Below, one piece after another: positions 7,401 to 61,667 of a stretch of 64,000 nucleotides of DNA (the first letter of the stretch is position 1; the number at the start of each line of letters is the position of its first letter). The notes under the pieces were generated by a model. It saw nothing but the letters and a program-made list of their open reading frames with translations, had not been told where the DNA came from and did no database searches. The DNA lies in the NCBI GenBank assembly GCA_035708165.1, contig DASSSZ010000001.1, positions 230,884 to 294,883 of the forward strand. Direction: 5' to 3'. Source of the DNA: Minisyncoccota bacterium (GTDB taxonomy: Bacteria > Patescibacteriota > Minisyncoccia > Phycocordibacterales > UBA2100). Position numbers and translations under genes: made by a program.

Positions 7401-7420
7401 GATCGGGAGGCGATGCGCAT

Positions 7421-7460
7421 ATCCATTTTAATTGCAATTTTAATTGCAATTAAAATGGAT
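7421..7460. promoter_or_regulatory. perfect AT-rich inverted repeat ATCCATTTTAATTGCAATT-tt-AATTGCAATTAAAATGGAT
   Basis: 19-bp perfect arms with a 2-nt spacer, about 90% AT in a ~65% GC genome. Sits 20 nt upstream of the trmD ATG, in the slot where rimM normally lies; followed on the plus strand by GTGCTTTTTCC. Confidence 0.5.
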
Positions 7461-7531
7461 AGTGCTTTTTCCGGCGAGCTGCCGTGCGGCATTGCTGGCA
7501 CCCCGCCAGGGTCGGCCTCAGGCTGCCGTGG

Positions 7532-22644: not shown

Positions 22645-22674
22645 GCGCGCCGCCGCGCGGCAGCGATGCAAAAG

Positions 22675-22702
22675 AACCGCCCCGGCATATGCCGGGGCGG
22701 TT
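22675..22702. terminator. bidirectional hairpin AACCGCCCCGGCATATGCCGGGGCGGTT between convergent thrS and the surface-protein gene
   Basis: Perfect palindrome flanked by A-run/T-run. Confidence 0.6.
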
Positions 22703-22746
22703 CTCCCTTTGGAGTCTCTCAGGCAGCTGCCTGAGCGCACCCGTCC

Positions 22747-37574: not shown

Positions 37575-37728
37575 CGCTCGCTCGCCTTCACCTCCACGAA
37601 CTGGCTTGCTTGGAGCCGCCTCTCGGGCTTGAACCGAGTATTCGGATGACAAAACGTGAACGCTGCGCTCGCTCGCCTTCACCTCCACGAACTGGCTTGC
37701 TTGGAGCCGCCTCTCGGGCTTGAACCGA
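37575..37728. repeat. tandem direct repeat (2 x ~90 nt) covering the tRNA-Thr 3' end plus downstream flank
   Basis: GCGCTCGCTCGCCTTCACCTCCACGAACTGGCTTGCTTGGAGCCGCCTCTCGGGCTTGAACCGAG occurs at about 37575-37638 and 37665-37728. Confidence 0.7.
37611..37664 (-). pseudogene. tRNA-Thr pseudogene fragment (3' ~50 nt: degenerate anticodon arm, intact T-arm, acceptor 3' strand, CCA)
   Basis: Minus strand reads ..CGTTTTGTCATCCGAATACTCGGTTCAAGCCCGAGAGGCGGCTCCA. Identical to the intact gene from the T-arm onward, diverged upstream. Confidence 0.5.
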
Positions 37729-37777
37729 GGACCTACGGTTTACAAAACCGTTGCTCTACCAACTGAGCTAAGGCGGC
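37702..37777 (-). tRNA. tRNA-Thr (anticodon UGU), 76 nt, CCA encoded, discriminator U
   Basis: Minus strand GCCGCCTTAGCTCAGTTGGTAGAGCAACGGTTTTGTAAACCGTAGGTCCTCGGTTCAAGCCCGAGAGGCGGCTCCA. 7-nt anticodon loop TTTGTAA gives anticodon TGT. Confidence 0.9.
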
Positions 37778-37792
37778 TTCTAGGACGTTGCG

Positions 37793-37801
37793 ACTATACC
37801 A
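37793..37801 (-). promoter_or_regulatory. extended -10 element TGGTATAGT for tRNA-Thr, duplicated at about 37909-37917
   Basis: Minus-strand TGgTATAGT about 15 nt upstream of the mature tRNA 5' end. Confidence 0.5.
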
Positions 37802-37834
37802 TATTCCGAGGGAATTCGAGCGCAACGGTTTTGT

Positions 37835-37869
37835 GCCAAAACGTCCGGCAGTGCCCCGCACTGCCGGAC
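37835..37869 (-). terminator. intrinsic terminator GTCCGGCAGTGC-ggg-GCACTGCCGGAC-GTTTTGG; second copy at 37952..37985 terminates the 38017..38424 gene
   Basis: Perfect 12-bp stem plus U-run on the minus strand; part of the 116-nt repeat unit. Confidence 0.6.
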
Positions 37870-38016
37870 CTCTACCAACTGAGCTAAGGCGGCTTCTAGG
37901 ACGTTGCGACTATACCATATTCCGAGGGAATTCGAGCGCAACGGTTTTGTGCCAAAACGTCCGGCAGTGCCCCGCACTGCCGGACCGCTTCCAGCTGCGC
38001 ACGGCCTGGGCGGGCG

Positions 38017-40925: not shown

Positions 40926-40980
40926 ACCGTGATGATAGCAAACGGGCGCCCCGCATGCGGGGCGCCCGTTTGCGAGGGCG

Positions 40981-51678: not shown

Positions 51679-52686
51679 CTATGCCGTCTTCCCTGCCGCG
51701 ATGACGTGCTTCACGAGCGTGTGCACGTACCCGGCTTCGTTGTCGTACCAGCCGAGGACCTTCACCAGCGTGCCGTCCACGACGCGGGTCATGGCGAGAT
51801 CAGCGATGGAGCCGTACGGCTGCCCGACGACGTCCATCGAGGTGAGCTCGTCTTCCGTCACGGTGAAGACGCCATCCCAGCGCGGATCCGCGGCGGCCTT
51901 CTTCAGGGCGTCGTTCACCTCCTCGACGGAGGTCGGCCTCGAGGCGACGAAGGTCACATCCGCGATCGAGCCGGCCGGCGTCGGGACGCGCAGCGAGATG
52001 CCGTCGAACTTGCCAGCGAGCGAGGTGTGCGCGAGCGTGGTCGCTTTCGCGGCGCCGGTGGAGGTCGGGACGATGTTGAGCGCGGCTGCGCGCCCTTCGC
52101 GCACATCCTTCTTCGACGGCGCATCCACGATCGCCTGGCTCGCCGTATAGCTGTGCACGGTGTTGAGGATGGCGCGCTCGATCCCGATCGCCTCATTGAG
52201 GATGCCGATCAGGGGCGAGACCGCGTTGGTCGTGCAGGAGGCATTGCTGGTGATGGGGCAGGTCACGAACTGGTCCTCGTTCACGCCCATGAGGATAGTG
52301 GCCGCGCCTTCGCCCTTCGCCGGCGCGGAGATGACTACACGCTTCGCGCCCGCGTCGATGTGCCCCTGCGCCTTGGCCGGGTCGGTGAAGACGCCGGTCG
52401 ATTCCACGACGACATCCACGTCGTACTGCCCCCACGGGAGCTTCGCGAGATCTGGCTCATGCACGAATGCGACCTCCTTCCCGTCCACGATAAGCGCATC
52501 GTCCTTCGATTCCACGGAGAACGGCGCGCGACGATAGACGGAGTCATACTTGAGGAGGTATGCCAGCGTCTCTGTCGGCGCGAGATCATTGATGGCGACG
52601 ATCTCGATGTCGGGATTGCCCCATGCGGCGCGGAAGAAGACGCGCCCGATCCTCCCGAACCCATTGATTGCTACTCGTGTTGCCAT
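51679..52686 (-). CDS. gap: glyceraldehyde-3-phosphate dehydrogenase
   Basis: Internal start MATRVAINGFGRIGR; ASCTTNA catalytic Cys motif. Confidence 0.95.
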   Translation of the reverse strand: MATRVAINGFGRIGRVFFRAAWGNPDIEIVAINDLAPTETLAYLLKYDSVYRRAPFSVESKDDALIVDGKEVAFVHEPDLAKLPWGQYDVDVVVESTGVFTDPAKAQGHIDAGAKRVVISAPAKGEGAATILMGVNEDQFVTCPITSNASCTTNAVSPLIGILNEAIGIERAILNTVHSYTASQAIVDAPSKKDVREGRAAALNIVPTSTGAAKATTLAHTSLAGKFDGISLRVPTPAGSIADVTFVASRPTSVEEVNDALKKAAADPRWDGVFTVTEDELTSMDVVGQPYGSIADLAMTRVVDGTLVKVLGWYDNEAGYVHTLVKHVIAAGKTA

Positions 52687-52781
52687 ATCATTTTCCTGAT
52701 TATGCGCACGCCTGCCACCCGGCCGTGCCGCTACTATGCCAGAAGTGTACCACCACCCCGGCTGCCAGATATCCACCATTT

Positions 52782-52856
52782 GCGGAGGTTAAACCTCCGC
52801 AGATCTGTCCTCTATTTTAGATTATTTATGGAGATGTGCGGAGGTTTAACCTCCGC
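52782..52856. repeat. two copies of REP-like palindrome GCGGAGGTT-w-AACCTCCGC (52782..52800, 52838..52856) downstream of RAYT-1
   Basis: Perfect 9-bp arms, seen directly. Confidence 0.85.
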
Positions 52857-52876
52857 AATTTCCGCGAACCCTGCCC

Positions 52877-53533
52877 TCATTCCACCCACTCTGGTTGCTT
52901 GAGCCATGCATCGAGTTCGCGTTCCATCCCGATTCCTCCGGAGAAATAATCCGGGAATGCAGCAGGATTGATGATTGACTGCTGTATGCGCTTGCGCCCG
53001 ACATAATCAGCATAGCTGGAATACTCATAATCACGCAGGCCATGAGCATCCACGATCTCCCGCGGATTGAGGTGGATATATGCGAAGAGGTACTTGAGGT
53101 GAGTATCTTCGGTCACGTGGCGAGCCTTGAATGAGGAACCGAACAGGGCGCCAGTGCGCTCATTCTTCTTATTGAAATACATGGTGTAAGAAGTCATCAG
53201 CCTCTGCATGAACTTGCTCACACCCTTCCCTTCACTGTCATTCTCGCGAACGAGGATATGAAAATGATTCGGCATCAAGCAATATGCGCCAATGTCCACC
53301 AGCGGCCTTCCTCGATCGAATGAGAAAACGGATGAGGAATCCGCGGAGGTTAAACCTCCGCGAGATCGCTTGATCTCGCGGATTTCAGTTCCCTTCTGGA
53401 CCGCATTGAACAGATACATGCCTTCGAGGAATCGCTGATACTCTGCTCCATCCCGATAGACTGGCATCTTCTCGACGCCGCGCGCATAGAGATGGTAGTA
53501 CTCACCCGGAGCGAATACGTAGTTGCGTGCCAT
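52877..53533 (-). CDS. REP-associated tyrosine transposase (RAYT; IS200/IS605 Y1-like HuH)
   Basis: YHLYARGV, AYCLMPNHFHILV (HuH) and YIHLNP (catalytic Tyr). Real start MARNYVF; upstream codons of the track ORF merely translate REP copies. Confidence 0.8.
   Translation of the reverse strand: MARNYVFAPGEYYHLYARGVEKMPVYRDGAEYQRFLEGMYLFNAVQKGTEIREIKRSRGGLTSADSSSVFSFDRGRPLVDIGAYCLMPNHFHILVRENDSEGKGVSKFMQRLMTSYTMYFNKKNERTGALFGSSFKARHVTEDTHLKYLFAYIHLNPREIVDAHGLRDYEYSSYADYVGRKRIQQSIINPAAFPDYFSGGIGMERELDAWLKQPEWVE
53343..53361. repeat. REP-A palindrome copy inside the RAYT-1 coding sequence (encodes RSRGGLTSA)
   Basis: GCGGAGGTTAAACCTCCGC in-frame within RAYT-1. Confidence 0.85.
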
Positions 53534-53554
53534 GACAAAAGCATAGCACAGCTT

Positions 53555-53618
53555 GCGGAGGTTAAACCTCCGGAACTTCGTACAAGGTTCGCAGAGATTG
53601 CGGAGGTTTAACCTCCGC
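53555..53618. repeat. two REP-A copies upstream of RAYT-1 (53555..53573 imperfect; 53600..53618)
   Basis: Seen directly. Confidence 0.8.
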
Positions 53619-53639
53619 AAGAAGAGATGATTAGATTAA

Positions 53640-54239
53640 TTAGATGAACTGCCAGGTCTGCATGATTCCCGCGAGCCACGCATCATCATCCTTATAAGTG
53701 GTCACCTCATAGAGGAAGCCGCCATGGATGAACCACACCTCGCGCGTATCCCCCATTACCGGGTTGTTCCCGAAGAACATCGTCCCCGTCACGCCATCTA
53801 TGACCACGCTCGTGGGCTGCGTGCGCACGCCGGAGGGCTCGTCGAGCAGGAACCGCGCATCGCTTATGGTCGAGCTCGCGTACGACACGATATACACCTG
53901 GAACGCATGCGTATCATCCGCATCTTCGAAGGTGATCGTGTGCCCGCCGCCCGCTTCATCGTACTCGGCGCCGGTGAGCGTATCGGGATAGAGCAGGGAG
54001 AAATGATAGACGGCATTGTGGTACTCGCGTTCGCCCTCCGGCACCGCGCGCGGGTGCGTGAGAGGCGCACGCGGCGCGGCGAATGCTGCAAGCGCGCGCG
54101 CCGGATCAGCGGCAAACGCAGCAGGCGCAGCCGCATGGCGAAGCCATGCGGCTGCGCCGATCACGATCAGAAGCACCGCCGCCGCGCACCCGGCGAGTAT
54201 CAGCTTCCGGTTCCCGAGCTGCCGCATCAATGGAACCAT
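53640..54239 (-). CDS. membrane-anchored hypothetical protein, paralog 1 (199 aa)
   Basis: N-terminal signal anchor. C-terminus REVWFIHGGFLYEVTTYKDDDAWLAGIMQTWQFI paralogous to 55459..56079. Start overlaps the stop of the Gly-rich gene. Confidence 0.55.
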   Translation of the reverse strand: MVPLMRQLGNRKLILAGCAAAVLLIVIGAAAWLRHAAAPAAFAADPARALAAFAAPRAPLTHPRAVPEGEREYHNAVYHFSLLYPDTLTGAEYDEAGGGHTITFEDADDTHAFQVYIVSYASSTISDARFLLDEPSGVRTQPTSVVIDGVTGTMFFGNNPVMGDTREVWFIHGGFLYEVTTYKDDDAWLAGIMQTWQFI

Positions 54240-60895: not shown

Positions 60896-61600
60896 TCATT
60901 CTTCCCGCGCGTTAGAGGCTAAACCTCTAACGGGTGCGTCATGCATGTCCCCTTCCTCAAGCCAGTCATCTATATGCGCATCGAGGCTCCGCCGTGTCGA
61001 GAAGTATTCGGGGAACCTTGCCGGGTCAGTAATCACATGCCGCTTGCGATTATATTCGCCGAAGCTCGAGTACGGATATGTCTGCACGTATTCCCGCACC
61101 TTTTTGAAATCGCGAGAGCCGAATTCTTTCCAGTGCGGATCGACGAGTTTCGCCGGATTGAGATGAATATAGGAAAACAGGTACCGTGCATACCGATCAT
61201 CGAGCACATGCCTTGCCTTGAACGTGCCCTGGAAGAGCGCGCCGCTTCGCGCATGCCGCTCATTGAAATACATCGTGTAGGCGGTCTGCAGGCGCTGCAT
61301 GAATTTCGATATTCCATTTTCGACGAGCGGCGTCACATACAGGTGAAAGTGATTCGGCATGAGGCAATAGGCGCCGATCGCCACCAATGGCGCACCTTGT
61401 GTTAGTTTTAGAGGTTTAGCCTCTAACACATAATCGCGACGGATCTCGTGTGTCAGCCGAGGCGCAGCGGCATCATTCAGAACACAGAGGTAAGCCAGGA
61501 ACCGCTGGTATTCATCGGCGTTTGAGAAGATCTCGCGCTTATCCACCCCCCTATTATAGAGGTGGTAGTATTCTCCTTCGCTGAAAATGATACGTCTCAT
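60896..61600 (-). CDS. REP-associated tyrosine transposase paralog 2 (RAYT)
   Basis: YHLYNRGV, AYCLMPNHFHLYV and YIHLNP. Its stop abuts the start region of the 947-aa gene. Confidence 0.8.
   Translation of the reverse strand: MRRIIFSEGEYYHLYNRGVDKREIFSNADEYQRFLAYLCVLNDAAAPRLTHEIRRDYVLEAKPLKLTQGAPLVAIGAYCLMPNHFHLYVTPLVENGISKFMQRLQTAYTMYFNERHARSGALFQGTFKARHVLDDRYARYLFSYIHLNPAKLVDPHWKEFGSRDFKKVREYVQTYPYSSFGEYNRKRHVITDPARFPEYFSTRRSLDAHIDDWLEEGDMHDAPVRGLASNAREE
60911..60931. repeat. REP-B palindrome GTTAGAGG-ctaaa-CCTCTAAC inside the last codons of RAYT-2 (encodes VRGLASNA)
   Basis: Seen directly. Confidence 0.85.
61407..61425. repeat. REP-B palindrome TTAGAGGTTTAGCCTCTAA inside RAYT-2 CDS (encodes LEAKPLK), at the position homologous to the REP-A insertion in RAYT-1
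   Basis: Seen directly; alignment of the two RAYT proteins places both intragenic REPs between EIR(E/R) and PLV(D/A)IGAYCLMPNHFH. Confidence 0.85.
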
Positions 61601-61615
61601 ACTGTATGGAAGATA

Positions 61616-61667
61616 TTTAGAGGCTTAGCCTTATTTAGAGGTATTTTAGAGGTTTAGCCTCTAAAAG
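61616..61667. repeat. cluster of REP-B copies (degenerate half at 61616..61631, TTTAGAGGTA at 61634..61643, full TTTTAGAGGTTTAGCCTCTAAAA at 61645..61667) upstream of RAYT-2; supplies the stop codon of the tail-fibre-like gene
   Basis: Seen directly. The TAA stop of the 61654.. gene lies in the REP loop (GGC-TAA-ACC). Confidence 0.8.

Follow-up and report, generated by a model that had tools for sequence, protein, structure and literature searches.

The stretch analysed here, called the window below, is 64 kb of DNA from contig DASSSZ010000001.1 of a Minisyncoccota bacterium, an ultra-small organism of the Candidate Phyla Radiation (CPR). It carries RAYT-1, a domesticated transposase-like gene of the REP-associated tyrosine transposase (RAYT) kind, where REP stands for repetitive extragenic palindrome. 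A 19-nt palindrome, GCGGAGGTTWAACCTCCGC, is found on both sides of this gene and also inside its coding sequence (CDS). With up to two mismatches allowed, five sites were detected in the window, four of them exact (starting at 52782, 52838, 53343 and 53600) and one with 1 mismatch (53555). No other copy is present in the 64 kb, and 100 dinucleotide-preserving shuffles gave 0 matches. The 13-nt core, GAGGTTWAACCTC (at most 1 mismatch), occurs just 8 times in the window, and each of these sites belongs to one of two RAYT-like genes, RAYT-1 and its paralogue RAYT-2 (Table 1). The initial annotation had described five copies around and inside the gene, with the internal one in frame in a loop after the EIRE block, and both statements were confirmed: the codons CGC GGA GGT TTA ACC TCC GCG give RGGLTSA (residues 58-64) and are placed between EIREIKR and PLVDIGAYCLMPNHFH.

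Table 1. Positions in the window of the two RAYT-like genes, their palindromes and associated features.
Feature	Position	Strand	Remarks
RAYT-1, Y1/HUH (TnpA-REP-like) gene, 218 aa	52877-53533	minus	ATG start, MARNYVF...; HUH H90-F-H92; Tyr motif YIHLNP 152-157
RAYT-1 internal in-frame copy	53343-53361		R58-G-G-L-T-S-A64; stem 10 bp counting 53342-53362
RAYT-1 upstream proximal copy, 1 mismatch	53555-53573		centre 18.5 nt upstream of the -10-like hexamer, i.e. the -35 position
RAYT-1 upstream distal copy	53600-53618		inverted doublet with 53555-53573
RAYT-1 downstream proximal copy	52838-52856		gene-side end 20 nt past the stop codon
RAYT-1 downstream distal copy	52782-52800		inverted doublet with 52838-52856
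-10-like hexamer TATGCT	53540-53545	minus	ends 6 nt before the ATG; no Shine-Dalgarno; leaderless geometry
37-nt inverted repeat around RAYT-1	right-hand arm 52837-52873; left-hand arm 53583-53619		89% complementary; hairpin + 16 nt
11-bp hairpin (TCCGCGAGATC-GCTT-GATCTCGCGGA) in the RAYT-1 CDS	53357-53382		5-nt overlap with the internal palindrome
RAYT-2, paralogue with its own palindrome family	60896-61600	minus	tblastn, 45% identical to RAYT-1
RAYT-2 internal in-frame palindrome TTAGAGGTTTAGCCTCTAA	61408-61426		sense TTA GAG GCT AAA CCT CTA A = LEAKPLK
RAYT-2 upstream copy	61646-61664		degenerate partial copies at ~61617-61640
RAYT-2 3' copy	60912-60930		within the final codons of the open reading frame, translated VRGLASN

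Concerning the protein, RAYT-1 is a 100% match to P0001, listed by NCBI as 'transposase' on a 302.6-kb contig of a Candidatus Paceibacterota metagenome-assembled genome. The ATG at 53533 is backed as start codon by the homologue alignment and the NCBI annotation; a mechanical open reading frame (ORF) from the TTG at 53620 would take in both 'upstream' copies, and these two flank copies count as upstream only if the ATG is the start. The protein scores above the cut-off of Pfam Y1_Tnp (31.2 bits, cut-off 23) and below that of the NCBIfam RAYT equivalog REP_Tyr_transpos (41.9 bits, cut-off 80), which matched residues 78-172 only. H90, H92 and Y152 are invariant among 121 sequences, N156 and P157 are invariant in the homologue alignment A1, and the class-2 tyrosine motif Y---NP (PMC6006769) is present. 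H92 and Y152 are 60 aa apart, and YIHLNP is followed by a family-conserved C-terminal extension of 61 residues in which Y169, S172, S173, P194 and W210 are invariant.

The AlphaFold2 (AF2) model of RAYT-1 has a mean pLDDT (predicted local distance difference test) of 91.8. In it, the palindrome-encoded residues 58-64 have a short helix on either side (51-57 and 66-71), and the block-mean pLDDT drops to 72-85 in this stretch. The closest fold in the PDB according to Foldseek is 4ER8_A, the E. coli RAYT with its REP hairpin (E 9.8e-7), and the TnpA proteins of ISDra2 and IS608 rank below it (E 4e-4). A profile search of the PDB sequences with RAYT-1 gave nothing at E up to 0.01, the link to RAYTs coming from the fold search only. 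When the profiles were aligned, E. coli RAYT residues 38-139 corresponded to residues 68-176 of W1, as the RAYT-1 locus of the window is labelled in comparisons with related loci, which carry L-numbers (probability 42%, E 2.7e-4). W1 has about 30 extra residues N-terminal to this core, the palindrome-encoded stretch among them.

The flank copies form an inverted doublet on each side of the gene, with arms at 52780-52806 and 52832-52858 downstream and at 53552-53575 and 53598-53621 upstream. The copies are flanked by T/TT...A/AA, which lengthens the stem (TTGCGGAGG...CCTCCGCAA), and a GTAG/GTGG foot or guide tetranucleotide is absent beside the hairpins at RAYT-1. In addition, the 37-nt inverted repeat gives RAYT-1 an architecture like that of terminal inverted repeats (TIR), recalling the 'TIRtrons'. 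The 19-mer is rare, with 47 stretches in 241 million metagenome records, so it is not ubiquitous, and the 131.9-kb contig of an orthologue 69% identical to RAYT-1 has all 4 copies at the gene and 0 elsewhere. In the RAYT-1 lineage, the hairpin behaves as a local, low-copy element and not as a dispersed REP, as no copy away from the gene was found in the 64 kb of this genome or in that contig. Dispersed copies do occur in a few other genomes (L069). A variant, ATGGCGGAGGTTWAACCTCCGCCAT, was also seen on short contigs, at least 7 separate ones (L086, L090, L108, L110, L119, L120 and L123), none of which has a Y1 gene in reach. They come from several metagenome samples, mostly of two sample series; the core hairpin, which is the same, may be a genuinely dispersed repeat of some other organism.

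The family to which RAYT-1 belongs comprises about 5,900 homologues at E < 1e-5, each of about 210-235 aa and essentially all from Patescibacteria. From species-representative genomes, 80 loci were sampled, and nearly all of them have matching hairpins on both sides, built as stem, RGG, five bases, CCY and stem. In a census designed to avoid circularity, a 15-nt core was taken from the upstream region only of 71 loci and searched with at most 1 mismatch. This core recurred between CDS nt 31 and the HUH motif in 25 loci, every time at nt 157-178, and in the remaining CDS in 0/71. The centre of the palindrome falls on codon position 2 in RAYT-1 and in all 28 examined carrier loci but L032; RAYT-2 is also an exception. 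Furthermore, the loop peptides of the carriers follow the symmetry of a palindrome (LQGRTLE, FQEGRTFLE, YRGLTSV, RGGEASA, VQGPTLY). Some internal stems are longer than the part identical to the flank copies, by 9 bp in L022 and by 4 bp in L014 and L085. Carriers are spread over several clades of a neighbour-joining tree, and these clades also include decayed loops of unchanged length (LHGKTLA, IQGKTLS, QKGRTF), with flank hairpins and gene remaining in some lineages where the internal copy decays. The loop has 28-33 aa in clades without a trace of the palindrome and 34-43 aa otherwise. The CDS of E. coli rayT, taken as a control, contained no hairpin of at least 7 bp and had at most 9 nt in common with the REP flanks of the gene.

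Distant Y1 paralogues with their own flank hairpin inside the CDS were observed as well (L134:640-1323; also in L071, L018, L028 and L061). One example is an 18-bp stem at nt 449, right behind the catalytic YINLN motif; in another, at nt 212, the palindrome measures 31 nt and its sequence is of an unrelated class.

RAYT-1 is located directly upstream of GAPDH-rpiB-rpe-tkt (51679-52779, minus strand), and orthologues 53-69% identical occupy the same place. This shared chromosomal position indicates that RAYT-1 is stably inherited and does not hop. The position on the GAPDH side is conserved in L081, L085, L133, L134 and L135, and the other side usually holds large genes for Laminin_G_3 surface proteins. 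The hairpins of these orthologues differ from one another. The flank copies of W1 and L081 are GCGGAGGTTTAACCTCCGC (GCGGAGG...) and those of L085 are CCGAGGTTTAACCTCGG (CCGAGG...), with an identical internal copy in each case. L134 carries doublets of an imperfect unit, CCGAGGTTTAACCTTGG (CCGAGG..CCTTGG), with a G.T wobble on the sense strand, and its internal copy is that very unit, identical over 18 nt. The flank copies of L135 are CCCTAGGTTTAACCTAGGG and its internal copy is CCCGAGGTTTAACCTCGGG, one compensated base pair apart and with the stem perfectly paired; the flank version placed inside this CDS would create an in-frame TAG. L133 has flank copies TATCAAGGTTTAACCTTGATA and a decayed internal copy. 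L083, which is 62% identical and comes from another genomic context, has GACCAAGGTTTAACCTTGGTC (GACCAAGG...) at each of the three sites. Internal and flank copies therefore change in concert, including in orthologues that keep their chromosomal position, and the internal palindrome is not peculiar to this one gene but a conserved feature of a large Patescibacteria family that changes together with the flank copies.

The comparison of W1 with L081 (69% identical) also informs about the level at which the constraint acts. Third codon bases are identical at 45 of 133 conserved residues (0.34), which means that synonymous sites are saturated, yet 7 of 7 hairpin codons are identical. GGT TTA ACC is identical across five orthologues, in a genome of 64% G+C. 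Hairpin codons that are frozen among saturated synonymous sites indicate that the constraint acts on the nucleotides.

The paralogue RAYT-2 leads to the same point. According to tblastn, RAYT-1 and RAYT-2 are the only such genes in the window, which contains no near-identical copies of them. The RAYT-2 palindrome, TTAGAGGYTWARCCTCTAA, differs from that of RAYT-1 and has three sites: upstream, in the homologous loop and in the last codons of the ORF. Both palindromes have the common core GAGG-N5-CCTC and differ at the base of the stem, and the internal copy of each paralogue matches the flank copies of its own gene. The internal copy of RAYT-2 is in the same loop as that of RAYT-1, in the opposite orientation and in a different reading frame. 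Regarding the public annotation of RAYT-2 (P0121, 216 aa), it begins with MDKREIF, 18 codons after an in-frame ATG (MRRIIFSEGEYYHLYNRG; region 61546-61600, minus strand); as this start lacks the conserved first beta-strand, it is probably wrong.

For RAYT-2, the loops of the 120 closest homologues were compared: (E/K)A(K/E)P is present in 43, [RQGK]GLA[SL] in 13 and both in 3. At four such loci, the DNA revealed a single palindrome that yields one peptide in each orientation (GAG GCT AAR CCT C and AGA GGC TTA GCC TCT). A flipped hairpin has to be read in a different frame, since TAG or TAA would otherwise occur. In-frame inverted doublets resembling REPINs were also found within the CDS, at L141:185-221 (17-bp stem) and L139:103-130 (13-bp stem), which are translated as AGGLASILEAKPP and HEAKPRGLASR, respectively. 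Since one palindrome is read as GGLAS or EAKP depending on its orientation, the conserved entity is the DNA palindrome and not the peptide.

These data bear on whether the internal copy could be a product of chance or a by-product, either as a GC-rich palindrome of a generic kind or as a conserved peptide motif (GLTS) with codons that are palindromic by coincidence. It is true that x-G-L-T-S-x is the majority loop consensus of the closest homologues and that a loose G-x-T-type motif occurs in 86 of 119 homologues. However, 0 matches are expected by chance, and the window and metagenome counts rule out a generic palindrome, while the two frames and orientations together with the frozen synonymous positions rule out a peptide motif. 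The same DNA yields unrelated peptides according to its orientation, the peptide varies as palindromic symmetry dictates (for example LQGRTLE, FQEGRTFLE and RGGEASA), and related loop peptides in homologues are encoded by the same palindromic DNA and not by unrelated DNA. This explanation can be considered excluded.

The position of the upstream copy was analysed in 74 related loci with a relaxed search for -10 elements, on which the leaderless promoter described here relies. In 47 of them, a hexamer resembling TATAAT ends 6-7 nt upstream of the ATG, without a Shine-Dalgarno sequence in the 25 nt upstream that were inspected. The centre of the upstream hairpin is mostly 18-29 nt upstream of this hexamer (mode 22), which is the -35 position. 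The family thus appears to be expressed from leaderless mRNAs, as predicted from this arrangement, and the upstream copy would usually cover the -35 region of such a promoter. At the other end of the gene, the 3' copy overlaps the stop codon in many relatives (...GAG GTT TAA), and the stop codon is then in the central loop of the hairpin. A promoter inside the gene, driven by the internal hairpin, was also considered: L001 has a perfect TATAAT after the hairpin, nothing comparable was seen on inspection of the other carriers, and this candidate was rejected.

As one of two possibilities, the initial annotation had proposed a cis-regulatory hairpin in the mRNA. Three hairpins in tandem are predicted for the sense strand of 53310-53410 when it is folded as RNA (-37.9 kcal/mol, z = -2.95). 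Under DNA parameters, this strand of W1 instead forms the adjoining 11-bp hairpin and not the palindrome, the two folds being mutually exclusive because of their 5-nt overlap. Within 53335-53385, three CGCG blocks and an outer AATC/GATT pair allow mutually exclusive folds, and deleting 17 nt there would leave a perfect 13-bp palindrome. The Rfam scan of 52600-53800 gave only two sub-threshold matches to miRNA families, on the doublet, and hence no known RNA family. The palindrome could be selected for mRNA structure (translational pausing, folding of the N-terminal half or transcript stability) independently of recognition by the enzyme, and the three RNA hairpins, the compensatory changes that maintain the stems and the G.T wobble on the sense strand of the L134 unit are in line with it. 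Nevertheless, such a role would not require sequence identity with the flank copies, loop bases included, nor is it favoured by the DNA-parameter fold of W1. Moreover, a copy placed on an apparently leaderless promoter is outside the transcript and would not be transcribed, so an mRNA hairpin would not be the common role of all copies. Selection for mRNA structure is for these reasons regarded as quite improbable.

In-frame REPs inside tnpAREP genes have been reported for subclass 2.4 by Quentin et al. in 2018 (PMC6006769), who call the feature unique to that subclass and note that the small insertions located towards the end of helix alphaB are distant from the projected surface of the DNA. 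The core idea of a RAYT with its own REP in its ORF is therefore not new, and the initial annotation, which called it unusual, has to be corrected in so far as it had been described before. As in subclass 2.4, the cognate palindrome of RAYT-1 is present on the flanks and inside the ORF, the frame is kept and the region is peripheral and variable. On the other hand, subclass 2.4 belongs to Cyanobacteria or Bacteroidetes and the RAYT-1 family to Patescibacteria. The insertion in RAYT-1 (residues 58-64) is N-terminal to H90, in the loop that connects helix alpha1 with strand beta2, and not between HuH and Y; its HuH-Y spacing is 60 aa in comparison with a reported median of 88; it has a C-terminal extension, whereas subclass 2.4 has none after the core domain; and its hairpins are local and lack the GT[AG]G foot. 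Regarding these sequence features, the RAYT-1 family has the class-2 Y---NP motif and yet does not fit subclass 2.4.

The E. coli RayT/TnpA-REP (PDB 4ER8; Messing 2012, PMC3479197; PMC3733652), the best structural match, also has HUH and Y---NP, and the E. coli REPtron is likewise a single-copy gene between cognate hairpins with inverted doublets on the flanks; its REPs are high-copy and have a GTAG foot, which is not the case for the RAYT-1 hairpins. Two diverged paralogues (45%) and syntenic orthologues are a trait shared with RAYTs, pointing to vertical inheritance and not to a spread like that of insertion sequences (IS). An active IS of the IS200/IS605 type is present as several near-identical copies, in contrast to the two genes of the window and the synteny of the orthologues. 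The TnpA of such elements is an obligate dimer of about 130-150 aa without a C-terminal extension; RAYT-1 has 218 aa.

Di Nocera et al. in 2013 (PMC3733652) described REPtrons as well as TIR-flanked relatives (TIRYT), and also REPs lying in frame within unrelated genes and flank REPs extending into the ends of genes. Like the Rickettsia palindromic elements, intragenic REPs are short palindromes translated within a functional protein, presumably in a surface loop (PMC3733652). Nonetheless, these are members of dispersed families in unrelated hosts (uvrA, dnaE, recB and others), while the host of the RAYT-1 palindrome is the presumed enzyme of the hairpin itself and the copies are confined to it. 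The TIRYT/TIRtrons (PMC3733652) resemble RAYT-1 in the inverted repeat that brackets the gene and is low-copy or absent elsewhere; the TIRtron motif GGGGWSAS is absent from the RAYT-1 arm, TGCGGAGGTTTAACCTCCGCAATTTCCGCGAACCCTG.

Taken together, there is a fixed three-site layout across many Patescibacteria RAYT-like genes, of which RAYT-1 is the local example. The first site would be a cognate hairpin centred on the -35 of a predicted leaderless promoter, the second lies in frame within the alpha1-beta2 loop (around CDS nt 157-185), and the third is a hairpin at or just beyond the stop codon. The internal palindrome of RAYT-1 may be a heritable copy of the type of hairpin recognised by its Y1/HUH enzyme family. 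It could have entered the ancestral ORF through a hairpin-directed cut-and-join reaction of the enzyme in cis, as proposed for subclass 2.4 tnpAREP, and it would be tolerated because the loop is peripheral. It may stay matched because all three are sites of one enzyme, either through selection on recognition or through replacement or conversion mediated by the enzyme.

Through binding at the promoter site and at the site in the gene, a potentially dangerous nuclease would be placed under negative feedback, in the manner of a main and an auxiliary operator. Auxiliary operators in coding regions are found in lac (O2 in lacZ) and gal (OI in galE), and self-repression is a feature of HUH Rep proteins such as the geminivirus Rep; by binding its own origin or promoter region, an HUH enzyme would repress itself. 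The likeness to the lac and gal operators would be purely one of analogy, with one site on the promoter and another in the transcribed gene, as Y1 enzymes bind hairpins in single-stranded DNA (ssDNA), unlike duplex operators. The reading in which all copies are putative enzyme sites, the promoter and in-gene copies give negative feedback, and selection, replacement or both keep them matched is favoured only tentatively, with chances judged to be slightly below even.

Several observations weigh against it. It is the position of the sites that suggests the feedback role; a strict sigma-70 scan found no promoter at W1, and the W1 -10 element (TATGCT) fits the consensus at only 4 of 6 positions. 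The internal copy is decayed in L004, L060, L074, L133 and L070 with the gene retained, and it is consequently dispensable in those lineages. The orientation of the flank copies relative to the gene varies. Distant paralogues (30-38% identical) hold their own flank hairpin at other CDS positions: before HUH (nt 159 and nt 212), after HUH (nt 284) and directly after the catalytic tyrosine motif (nt 449-450). These other positions, the orientation flips and the doublets fit opportunistic insertion as well as positional regulation. The covariation over 30 carriers (87% of cells paired; 74 double-sided changes versus 23 +/- 4 in shuffles) comes from loci that were picked for having the palindrome, and for this reason the case rests instead on the flank-identity census and the concerted change.

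The initial annotation had also suggested a self-targeting insertion tolerated by the fold, and this is plausible, given the lower-confidence loop in a confident model and the precedent in subclass 2.4 (PMC6006769), with the reservation that it is not a recent accident: a single recent insertion is ruled out by the constant site and codon phase across clades and by the decayed relatives of equal loop length. In the main rival to the feedback reading, the hairpin would be a functionless, selfish passenger, with an enzyme acting on REP-like hairpins repeatedly inserting or overwriting them near and within its own gene by local hopping with a preference for cis. In-frame insertions in peripheral loops would survive, and the internal copy would decay once overwriting stops. 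In-frame REPs in tnpAREP and in unrelated genes are documented and have been read in this way (PMC6006769, PMC3733652), and the at least 3 insertion positions among paralogues, the two orientations and REPIN-like doublets within the CDS, the decayed internal copies beside intact flank copies and the shorter loops of clades without an internal copy all agree with it. However, within clades there is one position and one codon phase over many species-level lineages, each matching its own flanks, and this would need continuous renewal in situ and not independent insertions. Furthermore, perfectly paired internal stems persist where they differ from the flanks (L135, L022), and the hairpins are otherwise hardly mobile, with no extra copy in the 64 kb and none off the locus in the 131.9-kb contig. 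A functionless passenger is on balance a doubtful explanation, albeit one to be taken seriously.

Beyond the feedback reading, the gene and its hairpins could form a self-referential, co-evolving module. In it, the enzyme would read a hairpin inscribed in its own ORF. This copy, protected by selection on the protein, would be the master from which the promoter, terminator and, in some genomes, dispersed copies are regenerated by enzyme-catalysed hairpin replacement, and the promoter and in-gene sites would exert a negative feedback on ssDNA coupled to replication or transcription. This is considered unlikely; if it were true, the concerted changes among orthologues at the same chromosomal position would document RAYT-catalysed site conversion in vivo in nature for the first time.

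Other features of the window are apart from the RAYT-like genes. Beside tRNA-Thr (37702-37777), the region 37780-37986 contains a unit of about 91 nt twice, with starts 116 nt apart. Each unit ends in a 27-nt hairpin, GTCCGGCAGTGCCCCGCACTGCCGGAC, and a tRNA-like 5' fragment (ctaccaactgagctaaggcggc) lies between the copies; ARAGORN calls only the neighbouring tRNA-Thr in this region. A perfect AT-rich palindrome of 42 nt (TATCCATTTTAATTGCAATTTTAATTGCAATTAAAATGGATA) is found at 7420-7461, just past an apparent gene start region, in DNA of 64% G+C. Two long, perfect, GC-rich palindromes, at 22673-22704 (32 nt) and 40938-40973 (36 nt), may be bidirectional terminators.

Among the features presented here, we did not find described the occurrence in Patescibacteria, the three-site layout, the position and codon phase that stay constant across clades, the concerted change at a fixed locus, the switching of orientation and frame, the doublets within the CDS or the upstream copy on a leaderless promoter. 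For annotation, it should be considered that a family of about 5,900 members with apparently leaderless starts is labelled simply 'transposase'. Two questions on RAYTs are open, namely their role and the manner in which the match between a RAYT and its palindromes is maintained, and with hundreds of REPs the classical systems are difficult to approach. In the Patescibacteria genes, the system is reduced to a single small gene with three to five hairpins, and natural experiments are at hand: paralogues with different hairpins in one genome, orthologues at the same position that shift their hairpins together, and a lineage where the ORF copy could not follow the flanks because a stop codon would arise. 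With this compact system and these natural experiments, recognition specificity, conversion in vivo and possible self-regulation become directly testable, and the main value of the family is as a compact natural system for the recognition and co-evolution of RAYTs and their hairpins.

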